From Mustelus asterias (taxonomy: Eukaryota), in the NCBI RefSeq assembly GCF_964213995.1, contig NC_135808.1, positions 34,534,001-34,598,000 of the forward strand: DNA of 64,000 nt, written 5' to 3'. Each line of letters starts with the position of its first letter. Position 1 is the stretch's first letter. A model generated the notes under the pieces. That model worked only from the letters and a program-made list of their open reading frames with translations. It was not told the origin of the DNA and did no database searches. A program made the translations under genes and the position numbers. Shown here piece by piece: positions 8,260 to 60,400 of the stretch.

Positions 8260-8508
8260 ATGTACACCGGGATCTCATGGTCCTGTTTGTTCAGGACGGT
8301 ATTCCCGATAAACACTGGGATGTGGAGGTGGACGGGGATGAGGTTTTCTACATGGATTTCAAACTGAAGAAGGAGGTGGCGCGGATTCCCGAGTTTAACA
8401 GCCAGGCAATACAGGGAGGAGAGGCGGGAATCTCAGCCAGTGTCGCCATCGCGAAACAGAATTTAAATGTTTGGAAGAACCGGTGGAACGGAACCGCGGA
8501 ACCGAGAG
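8260..8508 (+). CDS. DAA: MHC class II alpha chain, exon 2 (alpha1 peptide-binding domain)
   Basis: Pyrimidine tract + CAG acceptor (8257-8259) and GTGAGT donor (8509). 249 bp, phase 1/1. Translation (x)VHRDLMVLFVQDGIPDKHWDVEVDGDEVFYMDFKLKKEVARIPEF...AKQNLNVWKNRWNGTAEPR has the class II alpha1 DGDE-FY-DF motif, N69, R76 and the N78 sequon (HLA-DRA numbering), and closely resembles shark class IIA as I recall it. Confidence 0.95.
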
Positions 8509-8581
8509 GTGAGTGACCGGGTTCACCCCCCTCAGCCCCGGGCTGTGGAGCGGAGCGGAGCGGGCTGAGAGTGAGAGCAGC

Positions 8582-10590: not shown

Positions 10591-10923
10591 GATCCCATTG
10601 GGGGTTGTAACTGGGAGCATTTCAGTGAAATGCTGAGAATTTTATCATGTTCAGTGGGGTGTCTTTGCCACAGTGATCCCAGAGATCAAACCCTATTACC
10701 ATGTGTATATAAACCATTTAAAAACTGTATTTATCCAAAATCCACTTTACAAAGAGAAAAATAGTATGCAATAATCACAAGAATTTCAATCTATAAGGTA
10801 CTCTGGTCATGTTAGCTTCAGTTGTATAGGCCACACACAAGATCACATCTGGAATATTGTGGTAAGTATTGGTCTCCTTAAATGTGTTGGAAGCAGTACA
10901 TAAAAGTTGTACAAGTTTATTAG

Positions 10924-11217
10924 TCTTTTGGCTAAGATCAAGTGTAGTATCGACATGCTGTGCTTGGTTGAAGTCATTAGGTTACATCTTAGCTTCATTT
11001 GAAGCAATGTTTAAAAGCAGCTTCTCGGCCTTTTGGCTAAGATGCAAATGAGATCAAGCCTTGGAGGAGGAGCTGTGCCTACTCCAATCAGCTTGGATCA
11101 TGTAGATCAAGACCAAGACAGGAGGTGAGAGCCCTGTCTTGTCAGCTTGGATCGGGAATGTTGCAACTTGTTGAGCGTCTGAATTGGACTTGATTTGATT
11201 GAATTGGAATTAAAAAA
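10924..11217 (+). mobile_element. U2 snRNA-derived SINE-like retroposon with 13-bp TSD
   Basis: U2 nt 14-40 at 10925-10951 and U2 nt 4-27 at 11020-11043. A-rich tail. TSD acaagtttattag (10911-10923) / acatgtttattag (11218-11230). Inserted in a decayed CR1 (about 10780-11650). Confidence 0.8.
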
Positions 11218-12044
11218 ACATGTTTATTAGCAGGAATGGACAGGTTGTTTTATGAGGAAAGATTCAAAAAGCTAGGCTGGAGTTTAGAAAAGTTTAGGTG
11301 ACTTGATCAAAATCTTTAGGTTCCTGAGGGGTACTGACAGGGTGAATGTGGAGAGGATGTCTTGTCCAAGAATGTGAGGTCACTGTTTAAAAATAAAGGG
11401 TCGCTCGTTTAAGACTGAGATGAGGATAACTTTTTTTGTCCGAGAGCCATGAGTGTCTGGAACTCTTCCTCAAAAGACAGTGGAAGCAGAATATTTGAAT
11501 ATTTCTAAGGCATAGCTAGATTCTTCACTAACAAGAGGGTGCGACAGGCAGGAATTGAGGTTACAATCAGATCAACCATGATCTTATTGAATGGTGGAGC
11601 AGGCTACTGAGAATCTCAGGGGCCAAGTGGCCTACTCCTGCTCCGAATTTGTATATGCAAATTATTGGTGGTTGCTGTACTAGGTGTTTGTACTAATCTG
11701 TTGGTGTGTTGGCGTACAGTTGACCTGAGGGACTGATGATCGTTCAATTACTTGCTCAGGTGGCAAAATCAGATCTGTCTCATAAGTTGTTTGCAGTGAA
11801 GGAGTAACTTCTCCGGTTAAGCATAGATGTTTACAGCTGCAGCAATAGATCTGATCATTCATCTTCATCATGCACGACTAACATGACAATATTTCCATTA
11901 CATTGAGACAAAAGTCCTGGGACCAATTACACCATGACACCAAAACCAGTGATCACTTGCACCATGGTACTGAATCCAGCAGCTCAGTGGCTGCTTGCGC
12001 CATAGTGCTGAATCCAGGAACTGTAGGGTCTTACAGTTTTTCTA

Positions 12045-20894: not shown

Positions 20895-21082
20895 TCTTTT
20901 AGGGCAAACAAAATAAACCAACTCGAATTAGCTCAGGGACAAAGTAAAAGGGGCAGCTCCCCAAAAGGAGGGGGAACAGCCTGAACAGAACAGAAGTACA
21001 AAGGAAACTTAAAACATCAAATCATAATGTGATTATCGGGGTCTATAATGCACCCCAGCCCCTGCGGTGCCCAACGGGTGCA
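20895..21082 (-). mobile_element. Tx1/L1-clade LINE 3' fragment, 13-bp TSD
   Basis: TSD gaaatcctgtgcc at 20882-20894 and 21083-21095. Homologous to 21246-21430. Confidence 0.8.
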
Positions 21083-21245
21083 GAAATCCTGTGCCGTGCT
21101 ATTCTATAGTTTTGACTGTTGGCATCCACAGGAAAGATGATGTACTGATTGCTGTTAGAATGTAACCGGTGACAACTTTGTATTGGATGTAATGTGACCA
21201 ATGGTAACAAGCTGTAAGAGTCAGCTGATCCAGTAAACCATGGAA

Positions 21246-21787
21246 TTCTTTTGATACCAATCAAGTAAACGAACTCAAATTAACTTGGGGACAAAGTAAA
21301 AGGGGCAGCTCCCCAAAAGGAAGGGGGGAACAGCCCGAACCAAAAACAAAGTCGAAAGGAAACTTAAAACGTCAAACCAAAAGGTGATTATCGGGGTCGA
21401 TAATACACCCCAGCCCCTGCGGCGCCCAGCGGTCGCGGAAGGCGTCAACTGCGCCCGTGGACACCGCATGCTCCCTCTCCAGAGACACCTGGCCGCAAAT
21501 GTAGCCGCGGTAGAGGGGCAGACAGTCGGGATGGACGGCCCCGTCGATCGCCCGCTGCCTGGACCTATTGATGGCGCGTCTCGCCAGGCCCAGGAGCAGG
21601 TTCACGAGGAGGTCGGCATCCCGACCTGCCCCTCTCCGCACCAGATGCCCGTAGATCAGGAGCGTGGGACTGAAGTGCAAACAAAACATCAGTAAAAGGT
21701 GTTTGAGGAAACCAAAAAGGGTGTGCAGCCTAAAACACAGAACATAGACATGGTCCACGGACTCCACGAGGCCACAGAAAGGGCAGT
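21246..21787 (-). mobile_element. Tx1/L1-clade LINE 3' fragment, 9-bp TSD
   Basis: ORF 21372-21800 with the C-terminal CCHC motif (CPFCGLVESVDHVYVLC) and FRDRW. TSD accatggaa at 21237-21245 and 21788-21796. Confidence 0.85.
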
Positions 21788-22377
21788 ACCATGGAACCAA
21801 TTACAGAATGATGTGATGGTCAGCTGACTCACTATAAATAAGAACCTGTTGGGAATTATGGGGAGCTTGGATTGGCCCAGGGCGAGGCCCCAAGTTTGGA
21901 ATAATGCCGTTTCTTTATTAAACATTTTCTTTGATTTATAAGTCGCAGTAAGTTTTATTATATTTTTATTATCTGCATTTGAAGAGTTCCTTCTGAAGAA
22001 ACAATTGCCCTGACAGAATGGACCTTGGTGACCTGCTGGATGTATGTGCAAATGGCAGACTGTGCAGCAACCTGGAAGAAACTTGAGGCAGGAAATGTAA
22101 GGATTGTGGAGCCTTTACCAGCCACTATGAATGCAGAATCTCAGCAAGCAGCAGGTCTTGGAGCAGCAGGCTGATTGTGTGGAGAAGCGCAGCCCCTCCA
22201 AACACTGATCCTCAAAGCTTCAAGGAGATGCCTCTTGGTGTACAGAGCCAGTGTGCTTTGTACTCCAGAAGGAAGCTCTCCCCCTGCCCCCCACCCTTGT
22301 CTTCTAGCAGACCAGCAGCTGTTGCCTCTAGTTAACCAGCATCAGCTGCTACTCTTGACAGCAATCTTTGAACACAA

Positions 22378-30450: not shown

Positions 30451-31025
30451 AGCACTGGAATGTTTTCCCCATTCCTAACTTTCCTGAACAATTTATATTT
30501 GGGGATATTTAATACCAAGCACTGCCCACAAGAACTGCAGAAAATCAAAGAGAAGTCCTGGTCGCAACTAACATCAAACCAGGACAGACATTCTGAGGTG
30601 CCGCCTTTCAGATGTAATGTTAAAGTGAGGTTTTTTTTTTGTAAAGTGGTCGTTAAAGGAGCTACTGAAAGAGTCAATATTTTTCCCAGCGTCTTAGTCA
30701 AGTTTATTTTTGTGCCATTAATCCAGATGAACTTCATTTTCATCTGTTTGCAGGATCTTGCTGTGTACACAACAGGTGGAAATCATTGTTTGTAAGGAAT
30801 TTGAGGATGTGCTGAGGATGAGGCTTTATAAATGTAAACTCTTTCTTTAGTTATCTCTCCACTGCATGTTGAAGTAGTCTAATTTCTGATCTGAACTGAT
30901 GGGAATTGATTATAGTCACTCATTGTATATTTTCCACACTGCACAGTCTACCTGTTATATTTTATTTATCCTGCTACATCACATTGGTTAATTGTACCCA
31001 TGCCATGTCCTTTCTCTGTTCACAG

Positions 31026-31307
31026 TTGCCCCTCAGATTGCCATGTACCCTGAAGTCTCAGTAGAATGGGGACAGCCCAACACATTGATCTGTCTGACTG
31101 ATGGATTCTTCCCTCCACGTATCACCATGAAGTTTATGAGAAACAATGAAAAACTGACTAATGGCATCAACATCACAGAGTATTATATAAAGAAGGATTA
31201 TTCCTACCAGAGATTCGCATACCTGCAATTCACCCCGAGTCCGGGAGACATGTATTCCTGTCATGTGGAACATGAGGGTCTGGAGGAGCCAGCGACTGTA
31301 TTTTGGG
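31026..31307 (+). CDS. DAA: MHC class II alpha chain, exon 3 (alpha2 Ig-C1 domain)
   Basis: ttctctgttcacag acceptor and GTTAGT donor at 31308. 282 bp, phase 1/1. Translation VAPQIAMYPEVSVEWGQPNTLICLTDGFFPP...GDMYSCHVEHEGLEEPATVFW contains both Ig cysteines and the YSCxVxH motif. Confidence 0.96.
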
Positions 31308-32669
31308 GTTAGTATGGATTTGATTATCTGGGAGCTGGTTTCAGAATTGATTTATAGTCAGATGCAGTGTAAGAGTCAGACTTTATGTCTCATTCTTGAA
31401 AGGCCTCAATTGATGTTTTTGCACTTCAAATGTGGATAGAATCCCGTGTAATAAAATATAATAATTAGTTTAACTGGCTGTTGAGTATAGTTGGGGCATT
31501 AGATTGGTTTTACAATTAGAATCCAATAAATATCAACATCTGTAATTCAATCAAACCTTGGTTTACAGAGAATGAGAATAAGTGGTTGATTGTGTAATCG
31601 TCAGCAATGAATCTCTGTTCAGTGTTGGATTTCCCTTGTGCTCTGCAGAAAATGTATGTAGCACAACAGAGTAAAAGCCAGTATCAGGCCAGGTGCAATA
31701 TGTGTCTATTACATTTTGGGAATTTTTTTCTCTGTGCTGTATGGTCTATGAAGTTAGAAATATTTAGTTTGAATTATTCTCATGGGTGAGTTTTTCACTC
31801 AACTTGGACCTTCAGACTATATTTAATGAAATCTAGGGCATAAAAGAGATTTAACTAAAGTTTCCACCTTTTCTGAGAAGCAGAATATCACATCAAATCC
31901 TGTTTTAGATTTTAATTGTGAAAAAAAAATCATTGATAAATTAAGAACAAATAAATTAACACATGGCAGGGCTGGTGATGTGTTGCATCTGCTGTATGTG
32001 GGTTGGCATGGACACCAGTGTAATCCACAGCAAACACATCTGCAGTGAATGGTTGCAGCTTCAGGAATTTTGATTCAGAATGAATGAGTTAAGGTTTGAG
32101 CTGTGGACACTGCGATGCATCAAGGAGGGGGAAAATTATCTGAACATTTTGTTCCAGAAGGCAGCTATACCCCTTAGAATAGGGCCCTCTGATTTGGTCA
32201 GGGACAGGAGGGTGTGACTGTGAGTGAGGCAGGTAAGGGGATTGAGAACGTAGGAGCCTCAGCAAATGCCCTGTAGGTGCAGAATGTATGGATGAGAATG
32301 GGGACGGCAAGGTGGATGAGTGAACTGGCCTTGGCATTGTGGTACTGGAAGCCATTCATGTGGGGGGAGTAATAGGAATGTTGTGGTGTAGAGGACAGTA
32401 CAGCACAAGGGATAGACACGGTTCTGTGTCGAGGAAAACAAGAATCCAGCTGACTTTGTTGCCTGCCCAGTGCCAGAGTTTGGGACATCTGATTGGGGCT
32501 GGAGAGGAACTTGCCGTGGGAAGGAGAGGATCCTGTTGTTGTGGTCTATGTGGGGTACTGACAGCAGAAATGGGGCTAGGAAGGAAATTCTGCATAGCAA
32601 GTATCAGCTACGAGAGGCTAAATTGAAAAGCAGAACCTCAAAGGTAATAATCTCTGTATTGGGTGCGGG

Positions 32670-44498: not shown

Positions 44499-47400
44499 GG
44501 GCCAGATTTTATCATTTTCATTCTAAGTGCTGTTTATCATTTTCATTCTAAGTGCTGATTCTGGGCGCAGTACAGATCCGACTCAGAAATCCGCTTTCAG
44601 GTGCCCCCATACACTCTCAGCCATCTCCAGTACGATTCGCGCTGTGGGCGGGGCTTAGCAGAAAGCAGAGAAAGCGGCCCAGGAGCAAAAAGTGGCTGCG
44701 AGGGTGTATCTCGGTGTTGGGGGGGGGGGGGGCAGATGGATCTCTGGTGGGGGGGGGGGGGAGAGCAGATGGATCTCTGGGGGGGGGGGGCAGATGAATC
44801 TCGGGTGGGGTGGGGGGTGGGGGGGCAGATGGATCTCTGGTGGGGGGGGCAGGGGGGTCCGCTGCCACTCTGCGGGCGATTGGAGGGGGCAGGGGTGGCG
44901 GTAGGTCTGGGTGGGGGGGGATGCTGATTTTTAGCTCTCAAGGATCTACTTCCATTCTTTTTTTCACGCCCAGAACTGTTTCATGGTGAGGGTTTTCTCT
45001 GGAGACCTGCCCTCAAGTGCAAGCTCGGCGAATCTTCCAACATCATTTCAAATCTGCACCGTTTGGAACTTTCTGTCCAAGTGCAAGCTCCCACACACAT
45101 TCCTCTTCTGTGGTTGGTCCCTTGTTGCTCTCCCCGACAAGTCCACCACCCCCCCACTACCCAGACCGATCACCCGCAGAGTGGCAGCAGACCCCCCTGC
45201 CCCCCCACCAGAGATCCATCGGCCCCCCCACCAGAGATCCATCGGCCCCCCCCCACCAGAGATCCATCGGCCCCCCCCCACCAGAGATCCATCGGCCCCC
45301 CCCCACCAGAGATCCATCGGCCCCCCCCCACCAGAGATCCATCGGCCCCCCCCCACCAGAGATCCATCGGCCCCCCCCACCAGAGATCCATCGGCCCCCC
45401 CCACCAGAGATCCATCGGCCCCCCCCACCAGAGATCCATCGGCCCCCCCCACCAGAGATCCATCGGCCCCCCCCACCAGAGATCCATCGGCCCCCCCACC
45501 AGAGATCCATCGGCCCCCCCCACCAGAGATCCATCGGCCCCCCCCACCAGAGATCCATCGGCCCCCCCCACCAGAGATCCATCGGCCCCCCCCACCAGAG
45601 ATCCATCGGCCCCCCCCACCAGAGATCCATCGGCCCCCCCACCAGAGATCCATCTGCCCCCCCACCAGAGATCCATCTGCCCCCCCCACCAGAGATCCAT
45701 CTGCCCCCCCACCAGAGATCCATCTGCCCCCCCCACCAGAGATCCATCTGCCCCCCCACCAGAGATCCATCTGCCCCCCCCACCAGAGATCCATCTGCCC
45801 CCCCCACCAGAGATCCATCTGCCCCCCCCACCAGAGATCCATCTGCCCCCCCCACCGGAGATCATCTGCCCCCCCCCATCGGAGATGCATCTGCCCCCCC
45901 CCATCGGAGATGCATCTGCCCCCCCCCATCGGAGATGCATCTGCCCCCCCCATCGGAGATGCATCTGCCCCCCCCCCACCGGAGATGCATCTGCCCCCCC
46001 CCACCGGAGATGCATCTGCCCCCCCCCCACCGGAGATGCATCTGCCCCCCCCCCCACCGGAGATGCATCTGCCCCCCCCCCCCACCGGAGATGCATCTGC
46101 CCCCCCACCCCCCACCGGAGATGCATCTGCCCCCCCCCCCCCCACCGGAGATGCATCTGCCCCCCCCCCCCCACCGGAGATGCATCTGCCCCCCCCCCCC
46201 CACCGGAGATGCATCTGCCCCCCCCCCCCCACCGGAGATGCATCTGCCCCCCCCCCCCACCGGAGATGCATCTGCCCCCCCCCCCCCACCGGAGATGCAT
46301 CTGCCCCCCCCCCCCCCACCGGAGATGCATCTGCCCCCCCCCCCCCACCGGAGATGCATCTGCCCCCCCCCCCCACCGGAGATGCATCTGCCCCCCCCCC
46401 CTACCGGAGATGCATCTGCCCCCCCCCCCACCGGAGATGCATCTGCCCCCCCCCCCACCGGAGATGCATCTGCCCCCCCCCCCCACCGGAGATGCATCTG
46501 CCCCCCCCCCACCGGAGATGCATCTGCCCCCCCCCCCACCGGAGATGCATCTGCCCCCCCCCCCCACCGGAGATGCATCTGCCCCCCCCCCCACCGGAGA
46601 TGCATCTGCCCCCCCCCACCGGAGATGCATCTGCCCCCCCCACCCCCACCGGAGATGCATCTGCTCCCCCCCCCACCGGAGATGCATCTGCCCCCCCCCC
46701 CCCACCGGAGATGCATCTGCCCCCCCCCCCCCCACCGGAGATGCATCTGCCCCCCCCCCCACCGGAGATGCATCTGCCCCCCCCCACCGGAGATGCATCT
46801 GCCCCCCCCCCCCCACCGGAGATGCATCTGCTCCCCCCCCCCCACCGGAGATCCATCAGCCCCCCCCCCCCCCCCCCCCACCAGAGATAGATACATCTTA
46901 CCCACCTCCCCGCCCCCCCCCCCCCCCCCCATGCAATGATCTGGCTCACTCCCCCCCCCCCCCCCCCCCCAGACGGTGATCTGGCCTCATCCTTTTCCTC
47001 CCCCCCACCCCCACTCCAACCAGACAGCGATTGCCCCCCCCCACCAGAGATACATCTGACCCGCCGCCTCCTCTTCCCCTCCCCCCCCCCCCCCCCCCCC
47101 CACAAACAACGATCTGACCCGCCTCCCCCTCCCCCCCAACAACTGATCTGAGCCAGAGACACCGAAAACATTGGAAACACTGAACGTGCTCTTCAGAGTT
47201 CTTCGGACTTTTATTTTGCAGACCCCTAAAAGCGCGGTTCCGGTTTGGTAAACGCAGTGGTAAAGGGGGAAATGATGATAGAGTTGGGCGGGCAGTTCAT
47301 TAATTCAATTTAAATGCATGCAAATGCATTTAAATCGTCCTTGCGCCCGATTTGGGTGCGGAACGGATCCCCGCCATTCGCAGGTCTCGGTAAAGTGGCA

Positions 47401-54300: not shown

Positions 54301-56991
54301 TTATAAGTTCAGACGGTCTGGAGGACCGCACCATCGTTGTGACCTCCTCAATACCGGCGGTGACACCGGAGTAGGTGCTTGCGGTGGCGTTCTCCCCAAA
54401 ACAGCGTCCAGCTGTTCTCCCACGGACTCACAGGCCGGTTGACCCTGATGAAATGGTAGTGCAGGGGATCCCGATACATTCTGCGATGGCGCCGATCTTC
54501 GGGGCTCAGGCAAGCTGTGCATTGGAGTAAAACTGTTAAGCACTGGTCCCGGTGCTGTCCGCGCCATGTCTGGGGGAGAAATAAGGGATAAGGGATTCGT
54601 CACTGGGGGTATGGGAGCGACAGGAGTTGCTACGTCCCCTGCAGGCGCCAGGTCTCGGATCGAGACTGTGTCCTCTCGCCCGTCAGGATATGCCACATAG
54701 GCATACTGAGGGTTGGCGTGGAGGAGGTGGACCTGTTCGACCAAGGGGTCGGACTTGCGGGCCCTTACATGTCGCCGCAGAAGGACGGGTCCTGGGTACG
54801 TCAACCAGGCTGGTAAAGATATCCCCGAGGACGACTTCCGAGGGAATGAGAACATCCTCTCGTGGGGAGTAGCATTGGTTGCCGTACACAGGAGGGAGCG
54901 AATGGAGTGAAGCGCATCAGGGAGGACCTCCTGCCAACGGGAGACTGGAAGGCCTTTGGACTTCAGCGCCAATAGGACAGCCTTCCAGACTGTAGCATTC
55001 TCTCTTTCCACCTGTCCATTGCCCCTAGGGTTGTAACTCGTGGTCCTACTAGAGGCAATCCCGTATGAGAGCAGGAATTGCCTCAAGTCATTACTCATGA
55101 ACGACGAGCCCCTGTCGCTATGGATATAGCTGGGGTACCCGAACAGGGTAAAAAGATCACGGAATGCCTTGATCACCGTGGCAGTCGACATGTCCGCGCA
55201 GGGGACAACAAACGGGAACCGGGAGTACTCATCTATTATGTTCAGAAAGTACACGTTCCGATCTGTTGAGGGAAGGGGGCCCTTAAAATCCACACTCAGC
55301 CTCTCGAAGGGGCGCATATGGTCTGGATCAGGGCCAATGACCCCGTTTTCCACCACGTATCCCAGGATGACTAACCGGCGCGTACGGAATACACACTTCT
55401 CCCTGTTGTAGGTCAAATTCAGGCGAGATGCAGTGCGTAAAAAGTTCTGGAGATTTGTGTCATGGTCCTGCTGATCACAGCCGCAGATGGTGACATTATC
55501 CAGGTACGGGAAGGTAGCCCGCAGCCTGTTCTGGTCCACCATTCGGTCCATAGCACGCTGGAAGACCGAGACCCCATTGGTGACACCAAATGGAACCCTA
55601 AGAAACTGATATAGACGACCATCCGCCTCAAAGGCCGTGTAGTGTCGGTCCTCTGGGCGAATGGGGAGTTGGTGGTAGGCGGACTTAAGGTCTATGGTGG
55701 AGAACACCCGGTACTGCGCAATCTGATTGACCATATCAGATATGCGCGGGAGGGGATACGCATCCAGCTGCGTATATCGGTTAATGGTCTGACTGTAATC
55801 AATGACCATCCAGGGTTTGTTCCCGCTCTTGACCACCACAACCTGTGCTCTCCACGGACTAACACTGGGCTGTATGATCCCTTCTTTGAGGAGTCGCTGA
55901 ACCTCAGATCTGATGAAGATCCGATCTTCAGTGCTGTAACGCCTACTTTTAGTAGCGATGGGCTTGCAGCCTGGTACCAGATTCTTGAATAAAGAGGGTG
56001 TGGTGATCTTTAATGTAGAAAGATTGCAGGCGGGGCGCTTTGGACAATTTGGAGACTGCAGCTGTTCCCCCACTGTCAGCGAAGGGAGTGGCCCACCGTA
56101 CTGTAGGATCACACTCTTCATGTGGACCATAAAGTTTAGTCCGAGGAGAATTGGTGCGCAAAGATGCGGCAACACAAGGAGCCTGAATCGCTCGTAAATT
56201 GTGCCTTGCACTTTCAAAGTTACCACACAACGTCCTAGCACAGGGACAGACCGGGACCTTGATGCCATAGAGATTGTCTGTTTGGCAGGTTGAATCTGGA
56301 GTCCACACCTCTTTACAGTGTCAGGGTGAATAAAGCTCTCAGTGCTCCTGCTGTCAAACAGACAATAAATTGCACGACCATTTACCTGTATATCCATCAT
56401 CGAACAATCAAGCCTGTGATGCTTAGCCTGGTTTAGGGTGATTGACGCCACCGTTGGTCCGTGAACGTCACTGCAGGCAGCTGAGGTCGATGCTGAGGAC
56501 CCCTGCTGGTCGCTCATGGTCATCGTCGACCAAAATGGCCGCCCCCATGAATCGCACATGGGTGAGGGCTTAAAACGTAGCGACTCCTGGTGGTCATCCT
56601 CCTCCGACTCCGTCGACCGCAATGGCGTCGTCCTGGACTCGCACGTGGACGAACCCCGTGAGTACTTTGACGACGATGGTGATGATCCCCATTCCGAAGG
56701 GTCACAGGCCGCACTGCTGTTCTTGGGCTTCGATCTGCACACCTTCGCATAATGCCCCTTTTTACCGCATAGGTTACAGACTACCGCTTTAGCGGGACAC
56801 TTTTGTCGTGGATGCTTGGCTCCTCCGCAGAAGTAGCACCGCGGGCCGCATGGGGCTGCAGCCGTCGTCTGGTCCACATGGGAGCACGCCATAACACTGC
56901 GCTTCGAGCCCGTGGGGCGAGGAGGGATTTGTGACTGCTCCTGCCACGTGGTCCTCCGGATACAGGACCAAGCTCTTCGAAGCCGCCTCAA
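54301..56991 (-). CDS. Gypsy gag C-terminus/pol: 2 CCHC knuckles, protease, RT, integrase core (RNase H absent)
   Basis: CYFCGGAKHPRQKC, CNLCGKKGHYAKVC, LFDSRSTESF, IDLKSAYHQ, VPFG, YLDN, SVDFKGP, HSDRGSSF, NGQVERENA. Confidence 0.93.
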   Translation of the reverse strand: MRRLRRAWSCIRRTTWQEQSQIPPRPTGSKRSVMACSHVDQTTAAAPCGPRCYFCGGAKHPRQKCPAKAVVCNLCGKKGHYAKVCRSKPKNSSAACDPSEWGSSPSSSKYSRGSSTCESRTTPLRSTESEEDDHQESLRFKPSPMCDSWGRPFWSTMTMSDQQGSSASTSAACSDVHGPTVASITLNQAKHHRLDCSMMDIQVNGRAIYCLFDSRSTESFIHPDTVKRCGLQIQPAKQTISMASRSRSVPVLGRCVVTLKVQGTIYERFRLLVLPHLCAPILLGLNFMVHMKSVILQYGGPLPSLTVGEQLQSPNCPKRPACNLSTLKITTPSLFKNLVPGCKPIATKSRRYSTEDRIFIRSEVQRLLKEGIIQPSVSPWRAQVVVVKSGNKPWMVIDYSQTINRYTQLDAYPLPRISDMVNQIAQYRVFSTIDLKSAYHQLPIRPEDRHYTAFEADGRLYQFLRVPFGVTNGVSVFQRAMDRMVDQNRLRATFPYLDNVTICGCDQQDHDTNLQNFLRTASRLNLTYNREKCVFRTRRLVILGYVVENGVIGPDPDHMRPFERLSVDFKGPLPSTDRNVYFLNIIDEYSRFPFVVPCADMSTATVIKAFRDLFTLFGYPSYIHSDRGSSFMSNDLRQFLLSYGIASSRTTSYNPRGNGQVERENATVWKAVLLALKSKGLPVSRWQEVLPDALHSIRSLLCTATNATPHERMFSFPRKSSSGISLPAWLTYPGPVLLRRHVRARKSDPLVEQVHLLHANPQYAYVAYPDGREDTVSIRDLAPAGDVATPVAPIPPVTNPLSLISPPDMARTAPGPVLNSFTPMHSLPEPRRSAPSQNVSGSPALPFHQGQPACESVGEQLDAVLGRTPPQAPTPVSPPVLRRSQRWCGPPDRLNL

Positions 56992-57490
56992 GCATTTCAG
57001 CTAATTCCATAGCTTGGGTCAGGTTGAGATTTCCCTTTTCTAGCAGCTTGAGACAGATGTATGAAGACCCGACCCCGGCCACAAACGCATCTCGGGCGAG
57101 GTCGTACATGCTCTGCTCAGCCGACACAGCTTTGCAGTCACAGCCCCTGGCTAGCTGCAAGAGCTCATTGGCGTAATCCTCCATGGTTTCGCCCGACTGC
57201 CGACGTCGTGTAGCGAGGAGGTAACGAGTGTGGATCTCGTTGGGAGGTTTCGTATAGCGCTTTTTTAAAAGCTCGAGGGCCCTCGGGTAAGTGGTGGCCG
57301 CACGGATCGCGAGGTAGACTGTGTCGCTTACCCTCGCATGGAGAACCCGGAGTCTGTCATCATCTGTGGTGACCGCTGCGGAGGCTGCCAGGTAATCTTC
57401 AAAACACTTCAGCCAGTGGTCGAAGATGTTAGAAGCGCCCACCGCACGTGGATCTAGCGTCAGACGTTCTGGCTTTAGGATTTGCTCCAT
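56789..57490 (-). CDS. Gypsy gag N-terminal part (frameshifted near 56945)
   Basis: FDHWLKCFEDY...RRRQSGETMEDYANEL...RDAFVAG is a typical Gypsy capsid (Q-xx-E-x-x-x-x-Y/F) motif. Confidence 0.85.
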   Translation of the reverse strand: MEQILKPERLTLDPRAVGASNIFDHWLKCFEDYLAASAAVTTDDDRLRVLHARVSDTVYLAIRAATTYPRALELLKKRYTKPPNEIHTRYLLATRRRQSGETMEDYANELLQLARGCDCKAVSAEQSMYDLARDAFVAGVGSSYICLKLLEKGNLNLTQAMELAEMLEAASKSLVLYPEDHVAGAVTNPSSPHGLEAQCYGVLPCGPDDGCSPMRPAVLLLRRSQASTTKVSR

Positions 57491-60400
57491 ACTCTCCTTT
57501 CTTTTTTTTCTTCTGTCGAGAGTTTAATGTTAGTTAATAAAATTGATGCGCATCAATTGGACACGAGGCACGAAGCTTCGGTAAAAGAAGGCTTTTATTA
57601 ACTAACAATGGAACTAACAGAACTTTAACACACTATCCCAGACTGAAGAGGTCCCACCCGAGCAGGGGGTCTTATACCTCTCCCAGGAGGCGGAGCCCGA
57701 CTGGGATGTGCCACAACAGTAACAACCACAGGTGTATCAATCCCGCCCTAACCCAACAACAACATTAGAACAACCCAACAACAACATTAGAACAATCCCA
57801 CAGTGGGAACCAACGATGGTTCACCACACCCCTCGTGCTAGCCATCACCATCCGAGGAGAAAGGCTCTCACTATCCACCCTATCTAATCCTCTGATCATC
57901 TTGTATGCCTCTATTAAGTCACCTCTTAACCTTCTTCTCTCTAACGAAAACAACCTCAAGTCCCTCAGCCTTTCCTCATAAGACCTTCCCACCATACCAG
58001 GCAATATCCTAGTAAATCTCCTCTGCACCCTTTCCAATGCTTCCACATCCTTCCTATAATGCGGTGACCAGAACTGTACGCAATACTCCAAATGCGGCCG
58101 CACCAGAGTTTTGTACAGTTACAGCATGACCTCCTGGCTCCGAAACTCAATCCCTCTACCAATAAAAGCTAACACACCGTACGCCTTCTTAACAACCCTA
58201 TCAACCTGGGTGCCAACTTTCAGGAATCTATGCACATGGACACCGAGATCTCTCTGTTCATCCACACTACCAAGTATCTTACCATTAGCCCAGTACTCTG
58301 TATTCCTGTTACTCCCTCCAAAGTGAATCACCTCACACTTTTCCACATTGAACTCCATTTGCTACCTCTCAGCCCAGCTCTGCAGCTTATCTGTGTCTTC
58401 TGTAACCTGCAACAACCTTCCACATTGTCCATAACTCCACCAACTTTAGTGTCATCCGCAAATTTACTAACCCATCCTTCTACGCCTCATCCAGGTCATT
58501 TATAAAAATGACAAACAGCAGTGGCCCCAAAACAGATCCTTGCGGTACACCACTAGTAACTGAACTCCAGGATAAACATTTCCCATCAACCACTACCCTC
58601 TGTCTTCTTACAGCTAGCCAATTCCTGATCCAAACCGCTAAACCACCCTCAATCCCATGCGTCCGTATTTTCTGCAATAGCTTACCGTGGGGAACCTTAT
58701 CAAACGCTTTACTGAAATCCATATACACCACATCAACTGCTTTAGCCTCATCCACCTCTTTGGTCACCTTCTCAAAGAACTCAATAAGGTTTGTGAGGCA
58801 TGACCTACCTTCACAAAACCGTGTTGACTATCCCTAATCAAATTGTTCCTTTCTAGATGATTATAAATCCCATCTCTTATAATCCTTTCCAAAACTTTGC
58901 CCACAACAGAAGTAAGGCTCACTGGTCTATAATTACCAGGGTTGTCTCTACTCCTCTTCTTGAACAAGGGGACAACATTTGCTATCCTCCAGTCTTCTGG
59001 CACTATTCCTGTAGACAATGACGACATAAAGATCAAAGCCAAAGGCTCTGCAATCTCCTCCCTAGCCTCCCAGAGAATCCTGGGATAAATCCCATCCGGT
59101 CCAGGGGATTTATCTATTTTCACACTTTCCAGAATTGCTAACACCTCCTCCTTATTAACCTCAATCGCGCCTAGTCCAATAGCCTGTATCTCAGTATTCT
59201 CCTCGACAACATTGTCTTTTACCTGCGTGAATACTGACAAAAAATATTCATTTAGTGCCTCTCCTATCTCTTCAGACTCCACGCACAACTTCCCACTACT
59301 GTCCTTGACTGGCCCTAATCTTACCCTCGTCATTCTTTTATTCCTGACATACCTATAGAAAGTTTTAGAGTTTTCCTTGATCCTACCTGCCAAAGACTTC
59401 TCATGTCCCCTCCTGGCTCTTCTTAACTCTCTTTTTAGGTCCATCCTGGCTAACTTGTAACTCTCAAGCACCCTAACTGAGCCTTCACGTCTCATCTTTA
59501 CATAAGTCTCCTTCTCCCTCTTCACAAGAGATTCAACTTCTTTAGTAAACCATGGTTCCCTCGCTCGGCCACTTCCTCCCTGCCTGACAGGTACATACTT
59601 ATCAAGGACACGCAGTAGCTGTTCCTTGAACAAGCTCCACATTTCAATTGTGCCCATCCCCTGCAGTTTCCTGTCCCAACCTATGCCAGCTAAATCTCAC
59701 CTAATTGCATCATCATTTCCTTTCCCCCAGCTATAACTCTTGCCCTTCGGTATATACCTATTCCTTTCCATCGCTAAAGTAAACGGAACCGAATTGTGGT
59801 CACTATCACCAAAGTGCTCACCTACCTCCAAATCTAACACCTGGTCTGGTTCATTACCCAGTACCAAATCCAATGTGGCCTCGCCTCTTGTTGGTCTATC
59901 TACATACTGTGTCAGGAAATCCTCCTGCACACATTGGACAAAAACTGACCCCTCTAAAGTACTCGAACTATAGCTTTTTCAGTCAATATTTGCAAAGTTA
60001 AAGTCCCTCATAACAACTACCCTGTTACTTTCGCTCCGATCCAGAATCATCTTTGTAATCCTTTCCTCTACATCACTGGAACTTTTCAGAGGCCTATAGA
60101 AAACTCCCAACAGGGTGACCTCTCCTTTCCTGTTTCTAACCTCAGCCCAAACTACCTCAGTAGACGAGTCCTCAAACGTCCTTTCTGCCACCGTAATACT
60201 GTCCTTGACTAACAATGCCACACCTCCCCCTCTTTTACCACCTTCCCTGTTCTTACTGAAACATCTAAACCTCGGAACCTGCAACAACCATTCCTGTCCC
60301 TGCTCTGTCCATGTCTTCAAGATAGCCACAACATCGAAGTCCCAGGTACCAACCCATGCTGCAAGTTCACCCACCTTATTCCGGATGCTCCTGGCGTTGA

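Follow-up and report, generated by a model that had tools for sequence, protein, structure and literature searches.

A young U2-headed retroposon family in the shark Mustelus asterias, likely copied by a Keno-like LINE and likely transcribed from U2 genes

Introduction

How a retroposon that begins with a piece of U2 snRNA can be transcribed and copied is the question raised by an insert at positions 10924..11217 of the DNA analysed here, a 64,000-nt stretch of the Mustelus asterias genome (NCBI RefSeq assembly GCF_964213995.1, contig NC_135808.1, positions 34,534,001 to 34,598,000; hereafter, the window). Since the promoters of snRNA genes lie outside the transcribed region, the paper that defined snRNA-headed SINEs posed their transcription as an open question. 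The available text of that paper describes SINEU as "found only from crocodilians", ties it to Tx1-Mar via a Mariner target, and leaves its transcription open (PMC4494074). The original prediction read the insert as a dimeric, U2-derived, SINE-like element, plausibly mobilised by a Tx1-clade LINE. Here, we show that the insert belongs to a young family of U2-headed, non-coding retroposons with several thousand members, of which it is a 5'-truncated copy, and we identify a LINE and a set of U2 loci that may account for its spread.

Results

Structure of the window copy

All features of the insert lie on the plus strand, and U2 positions are numbered on this genome's own U2 gene (locus L032). 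As initially described, the insert is bounded by a 13-bp target site duplication (TSD), whose left (10911..10923) and right (11218..11230) copies are identical at 12 of 13 positions. The U2 head (10925..10951) corresponds to U2 nt 14-40 and includes the region that pairs with the branch site, while the second U2 module (11020..11043) corresponds to nt 4-27, i.e., U2 stem-loop I. Both are 100% identical to the U2 gene, which upholds the two exact modules of the original prediction. The copy is 5'-truncated, as its relatives reach U2 nt 1. Rfam recognised U2 in it only below the gathering score (28.1 bits, E = 0.0013), and the body returned neither an Rfam family nor a tRNA.

The spacer between the two modules had been taken as non-U2 sequence. 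Its length of 68 nt stands, but it is not simply unrelated to U2, because pairing with the head is predicted for its first 30 nt (-28.6 kcal/mol, with 0/1000 shuffles as good). As DNA, the likeness of the spacer to antisense U2 is not significant for the window copy (213/2000 shuffles). The term dimeric holds only for the U2 module, as the alignment of the two halves covers ~31 nt and stops there. Downstream, a perfect octamer (11042..11049), which we take to be the octamer motif, has no PSE-like partner that we could find, so a promoter role is unsupported. The body (11044..11185) is predicted to form long hairpins whose stems are conserved and whose loops vary by subfamily, among them the reported 9-bp hairpin, with arms (11114-11122 and 11133-11141) that are exact reverse complements. 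The element closes with a T/G/A-rich tail and a poly(A) (11186..11217), as read from the sequence; the A-rich end is thus present, and short at 6-7 A.

An MHC class II alpha-1 exon (MHC_II_alpha, ~8260-8509, Pfam E = 1.7e-14) and an alpha-2-like exon (~31,020-31,310, identified by motif search and reading by eye) lie on either side of the insert on the same strand. Therefore, the element sits in sense orientation within an MHC class II alpha intron, in agreement with the placement first proposed, where it is an ordinary, and probably inert, member of its family. Elsewhere in the window, long open frames on the minus strand (54,301-57,523) look by eye gag- and pol-like, as in an LTR retroelement, and a G+C-rich tandem repeat (44,900-47,000) opens long low-complexity frames on both strands.

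Predicted RNA fold

In the predicted fold, the 30 nt that follow the head pair with it and cover its branch-site-pairing region. This fold-back arm lies at 10955..10983 of the window copy, and its helix (helix 1) comprises 19 pairs, with 97.4% of cells paired and no two-sided change; the second U2 module forms helix 2. A full copy folds better than 100/100 shuffles (z = -3.9) and the window copy better than 197/200 (z = -2.7). In 20 copies picked by hand, the predicted fold has 97.9% of cells paired. Because a two-sided change was seen in only 1/72 pairs (1-4 in slid controls), the fold is predicted and not proven. If it does form, the arm would be expected to prevent the element RNA from acting as a faulty U2.

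Family size, subfamilies and marks of retroposition

A DNA search with the element gave 1,987 first-look candidates, and the best 40 of the 1,987 were all full length at 95-100% identity. A 24-mer from the tail has at least 4,734 exact matches in the genome and a 22-mer across the head/body junction of the window subfamily at least 257 (both are lower bounds), while the reversed controls of each had none. A check of the body's copy number had been proposed, and these counts rule out a single-copy chimera. Among 87 near-full copies of the window subfamily (subfamily A), the mean distance from the majority sequence is 1.9%, and the window copy lies 3.5% from it. Divergence of the sister group was scored only in columns conserved in at least 85% of copies, with 21 of 151 copies left out, and is therefore an underestimate. 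Several sister subfamilies differ from one another at the head/body junction and in loop regions, including the loop between head and fold-back arm, and junction type largely tracks the tree of copies.

Full copies, of ~295-330 bp, carry exact U2 nt 1-40 at their 5' end. Of 75 headed copies, 64 could be scored for their starting point: 13/64 begin at U2 nt 1 and 37/64 at nt 1-5. TSDs of at least 7 nt flank 59/158 copies, compared with 1.4 in shuffled pairings. Head-to-tail stacks that share a single TSD were found at 9/30 and 12/30 sampled loci, and the first 100 family copies listed contained eight close pairs, where 0.03 would be expected. The sequence upstream of 40 exact full-length heads is not shared, except in stacks and in one duplication. 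No headless parent family, and no LINE with the same body, was found among 30 tail loci. From the single junction held in common by 257 copies and from the subfamily structure, the family appears to have been amplified from master copies and not to be a sum of independent chimeras.

A small set of near-full copies (5/151) is hypermutated from A to G on the sense strand, defined as at least five A-to-G changes that make up at least half of a copy's changes; no copy shows the T-to-C mirror pattern. In the copies at L081 (~1668, minus strand), L109 and L133, A-to-G accounts for 23/28, 18/27 and 14/19 changes, respectively. We infer that this excess fits ADAR editing of a structured RNA ahead of reverse transcription. 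As regards additions in front of the head, extra U2 pieces precede two copies (L098 and L100), and at locus L174:1394-1500 (contig C12) a complete U6 (107.8 bits) runs straight into nt 1 of a window-subfamily copy, forming a U6-element chimera.

A Keno-like LINE that shares the U2 insertion site

U2 genes occur in tandem arrays on contig C24, and a second U2 type lies on contig C21 in a 450-bp unit (175.5 bits). This second type is ~90% identical to the main type, and its cluster (C21:28,044,000-28,083,600) consists mostly of copies of one LINE in both orientations. On C24 (L061, 44.81-44.94 Mb), an 8,035-bp unit made of an intact U2 and a LINE-interrupted U2 has been amplified as an array; in the units looked at, ORF2 of these LINE copies is broken into several frames. 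The LINE is 5.7 kb long and has its own U2 head. Its ORF1 holds ZCCHC3-like and CCHC domains, and its ORF2 an APE endonuclease (Exo_endo_phos, E = 2.7e-13), a reverse transcriptase (RVT_1, partial) and zf-RVT, the same three domains as in its homologues. One copy on C21 keeps an unbroken ORF2 of 1,144 aa (28,065,689-28,069,120, minus strand).

The 3' end of this LINE lies at U2 nt 38/39 at five junctions in the C21 cluster and at more in the C24 array. It is mostly dispersed, however: of its 286 exact 3' ends, the first 30 (contigs C1-C3) include none with U2 nt 38 next, and because it is thus not specific to U2 genes we call it Keno-like rather than Keno. No named Keno or Tx1 sequence was among 51 homologues of its protein, and its apparent Tx1/Keno type is judged from domains and target alone.

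Eight element tails run directly into U2 nt 38-51, compared with none in the control and at most 0.06 expected. They fall in several sub-lineages of the tree and include one window-subfamily copy (L070, which continues into U2 nt 38-58). In addition, 4/30 LINE 3' ends adjoin a family copy, against <0.01 expected. At 32 dispersed, unstacked sites, AG[CT] precedes the A in 8/32 (4.3% in the background), as at the U2 site, this motif having been picked post hoc, whereas TT before the cut at the same sites (4/32) is not significant. As to an origin of the element as an internally deleted, non-autonomous derivative of the LINE, the U2 head is the sole clearly shared part of the two. For the window subfamily, likeness of the body to the LINE 3' and 5' UTRs is not significant (51/150 and 55/150 shuffles); comparisons of other parts with the LINE UTRs gave 4/150 for a sister subfamily, 26/1000 for the segment after the head and 117/1000 for the terminal 46 nt. 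Given the common insertion site at U2 nt 38/39 and the mutual stacking, the family was likely copied by the Keno-like LINE, which supports the proposed mobilisation by a Tx1-clade element.

The LINE fragments within the window itself fared differently. Two tandem 3' ends at 20,900-21,800 (minus strand) belong to a young family with 3,012 candidates, the best 40 of which show 98-100% identity. Its label Tx1 comes from the original prediction, because Pfam found no family in a 142-aa fragment. These fragments had been tied to the element by their tails, and the likeness is real (0/300 shuffles, with a better score than the Keno-like LINE), but they form a separate family without poly(A), with ATAC following in 19/30 copies, and adjoin a full family copy in 0/30; one has a short U2-head piece ~20 nt downstream. 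Hence, this family is probably not the partner LINE.

Other snRNA genes were also surveyed for both elements. The retroposon is present at 0/30 U1 loci and 1/20 U5 loci. In the latter case (L251:1089-1377, minus strand, in a U5 cluster on contig C15), a window-subfamily copy is followed by U5 nt 38-115 and the U5 3' flank; the site matches the U2 site in its distance from +1 and not in its sequence, and the U5 gene in question lacks its 5' part. On contig C8 (L238-L249, 13.03-13.07 Mb), the repeat unit of a U1 array includes, ~390 bp upstream of U1, a 3' fragment of the Keno-like LINE. At L067:3630-3760, the degraded 5' end of a LINE carries, ahead of its U2 head, a 5' piece that we take to be U1-like, an arrangement that presumably resembles the U1- and U2-headed Tx1-Mar of crocodilians.

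Element copies behind U2 5' flanks with a PSE-like element

It had been suggested that a source locus with a U2 PSE promoter be sought, and candidates were found behind U2 5' flanks with a PSE-like element. Of 12 exact matches to the type-2 U2 flank plus the start of U2, six continue into the element, two into the LINE and four into an intact U2. With one further copy behind the type-1 flank, seven promoter-linked sister copies lie directly behind U2 5' flanks. Scored with a profile built from seven U5 and two U1 flanks against 2,995 background windows, a PSE-like 18-mer ranks in the top 0.3% at -62 of the type-1 flank and in the top 0.8% at -64 of the type-2 flank. The type-2 site is not significant in an unconstrained scan (14/200), nor was a PSE significant in the pairwise U1-U2 comparison; it appeared only once U5 flanks were added. 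The octamer is absent from both U2 flanks.

Only 2/7 promoter-linked copies are in place in U2 arrays (one each on C21, at 28,064,205-28,064,533, and on C24, from 43,060,550 onward), and the C24 copy has no second U2 module. Such array-resident copies may be end points and not sources. Blocks of U2-array sequence together with the element are enclosed by one TSD pair on contigs C1, C6 and C14 (TSDs of 10, 15 and 18 bp). On C12, U2 pieces lie to either side of a copy within a 13-bp TSD; these four were read by eye. No TSD was seen around the copy on C8. The TSD-bounded blocks show that element-bearing U2 loci were transcribed and retrotransposed, and because the array-segment retrocopies begin upstream of U2 +1, read-through RNA must also have been used.

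For the window subfamily, 40 exact full-length heads were examined and none has either U2 flank upstream; its clade in the tree likewise contains no promoter-linked copy. In one of its copies (L098), U2 nt 1-51 stand ahead of the element within the TSD. This is the form that a U2-resident source would be expected to give, and may be taken as an indirect sign of one, as may the copies that run into U2 nt 38-58 (L070) and U5 nt 38-115 (L251).

Discussion

Proposed mechanism

We consider it reasonably probable, on the genomic evidence above, that a U2-headed retroposon of several thousand copies is both copied by the Keno-like LINE and transcribed from the external promoter of U2 genes. Under this model, Pol II would start at U2 +1 of an element-bearing U2 gene and read through the body to the A-tail. 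Target-primed reverse transcription is established for LINEs, and the Keno-like ORF2 would in this manner reverse-transcribe the element RNA at the nick. With relaxed specificity, most copies would land elsewhere, e.g., in the MHC intron, and be promoterless, while an occasional return to a U2 gene would create a new source copy.

Alternative sources of the element RNA also need to be weighed. With the same family and the same LINE, the RNA could derive from read-through of upstream units, such as U2-array neighbours, the LINE or host genes, and the pile-up of 5' ends at U2 +1 from reverse transcription or processing. The TSD-bounded blocks on C1, C6, C12 and C14, which begin upstream of the element, favour such an origin, as do the 0/40 promoter-linked copies of the window subfamily and the flank-driven transcription suggested for SINEU-2 in the available text of PMC4494074. 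Still, upstream extensions are rare and 37/64 heads begin at nt 1-5; the 40 full-length heads have no upstream sequence in common save for stacks and one duplication, and read-through alone offers no reason for a stop at +1. We therefore think this origin unlikely. An internal promoter is highly improbable, both in the form of Pol III boxes within the body and in that of an octamer which, in a stack, would serve the copy downstream of it. In its favour, the second U2 module contains a match to what we take to be an A box, stacking is seen in 9/30 and 12/30 sampled copies, and the perfect octamer lies 184-193 nt before the 3' end, near its position in this genome's U1 genes (-196 to -206). Against these points, runs of 4-5 T in head and body argue against Pol III, a B-box-like match is missing from a sister subfamily, there is no tRNA, and no PSE-like score was found in the tail (148/200 and 158/200) or upstream of 11 stacked copies. 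A stacked neighbour as promoter was accordingly rejected, the octamer being present and the PSE-like site absent.

Other routes of copying can be judged in the same way. A different LINE, either the Tx1-like family of the window or an L1-type element, might be the main mobiliser, with the Keno-like LINE responsible for only a minority of copies at the U2 site. With 3,012 candidates, the young Tx1-like family is abundant, and its tail resembles that of the element (0/300 shuffles); moreover, the U6-element fusion at L174 has a form known from L1 biology (PMC4494074, available text). Yet the Tx1-like family carries no poly(A), has ATAC next to its end in 19/30 copies and abuts full copies in 0/30 cases, compared with 4/30 for the Keno-like LINE, and TT shows no excess before the cut, all of which makes another main mobiliser quite improbable. 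Independent chimeras of mature U2 snRNA and a body RNA, joined through template switching or ligation, would explain the U6 fused to nt 1 of a copy (L174), the extra U2 pieces at L098 and L100, and the different junctions among subfamilies. This explanation is largely refuted, and now has very little chance of being right, because one exact junction is common to 257 copies, junction type largely tracks the tree, and 30 tail loci yielded neither a headless parent family nor a LINE that shares the body. Copying by the Keno-like LINE and transcription from U2 promoters thus stay the preferred reading.

Beyond this reading, we tentatively propose a broader scheme, which we regard as possible though rather doubtful: a promoterless SINE renewed by homing. 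The LINE would recognise both the sequence and the position of its target, ~+38 in Pol II snRNA genes, since one window-subfamily copy precedes U5 nt 38, where the sequence differs from that of the U2 site. On each return, the U2 head would join in register with U2 +1 and thereby yield a new promoter-driven master that founds a subfamily, and the fold-back arm would hide the branch-site-pairing region and thereby spare splicing. Whichever way this scheme turns out, the family makes the transcription question testable, because it offers named loci, namely the element in register behind a U2 5' flank, retrocopies of such loci, and, inserted at the same base, a LINE whose ORF2 is unbroken in one copy.

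Comparison with known systems

In the literature searched, to which this comparison is confined, no shark U2-headed SINE was found, and the accessible parts of a 2017 review (PMC5381603) and of Kojima 2018 (PMC5786205) contain no shark case. The element departs from the classical SINE (SINE1/2/3, with a 7SL, tRNA or 5S head and an internal Pol III promoter), as it has no tRNA, a Rfam hit below the gathering score and internal T4-T5 runs. U2 and U6 retropseudogenes and snRNA-LINE chimeras, as presented in the available text of PMC4494074, have an snRNA 5' piece, a TSD and the use of LINE machinery in common with it; unlike them, the shark element has thousands of copies, a common body and subfamily-fixed junctions.

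Among U2-targeting LINEs, the portion of PMC4640811 available to us places Utopia of Phytophthora at U2 nt 39, with the same 3' flank for Keno, and gives Keno an APE endonuclease. The partner LINE resembles them in its APE endonuclease, its 3' end at U2 nt 38/39, and some insertions that have lost the U2 sequence upstream (PMC4640811, same portion). Keno is U2-specific, whereas the LINE here is mostly dispersed, with 0/30 sampled 3' ends (C1-C3) followed by U2 nt 38, and the shark element, in contrast to both LINEs, is itself non-coding. R2 in 28S rDNA borrows transcription from its target gene, according to the available text of PMC4494074, as we propose for the shark element, which differs in that its promoter would be a Pol II snRNA promoter, it is non-autonomous, and most of its copies are off target.

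The closest likeness is to SINEU. As far as the available text of PMC4494074 goes, SINEU-1, -2 and -3 and the shark element share an snRNA head, a length of <500 bp, poly(A), TSDs, repeated U2 modules and tandem copies with one TSD. Both also have T-runs that speak against Pol III, no clear tail likeness to the partner LINE, a Tx1-type partner inferred from shared targets, and snRNA-headed LINEs (PMC4494074, same text). The two differ in host, cartilaginous fish as opposed to crocodilians only, and in target, which is U2 nt 38/39 itself for the shark element and Mariner-N4_AMi for SINEU; copies behind U2 gene flanks and a predicted fold-back over the head set the shark element further apart (PMC4494074, same text). 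With its U2 head, its size of <500 bp with poly(A) and TSDs, its master copies and a target common with a Tx1-type LINE, the shark family shows the class features of SINEU as given there, a likeness of features and not of body sequence. If the model holds, a SINEU-like class would extend beyond crocodilians.
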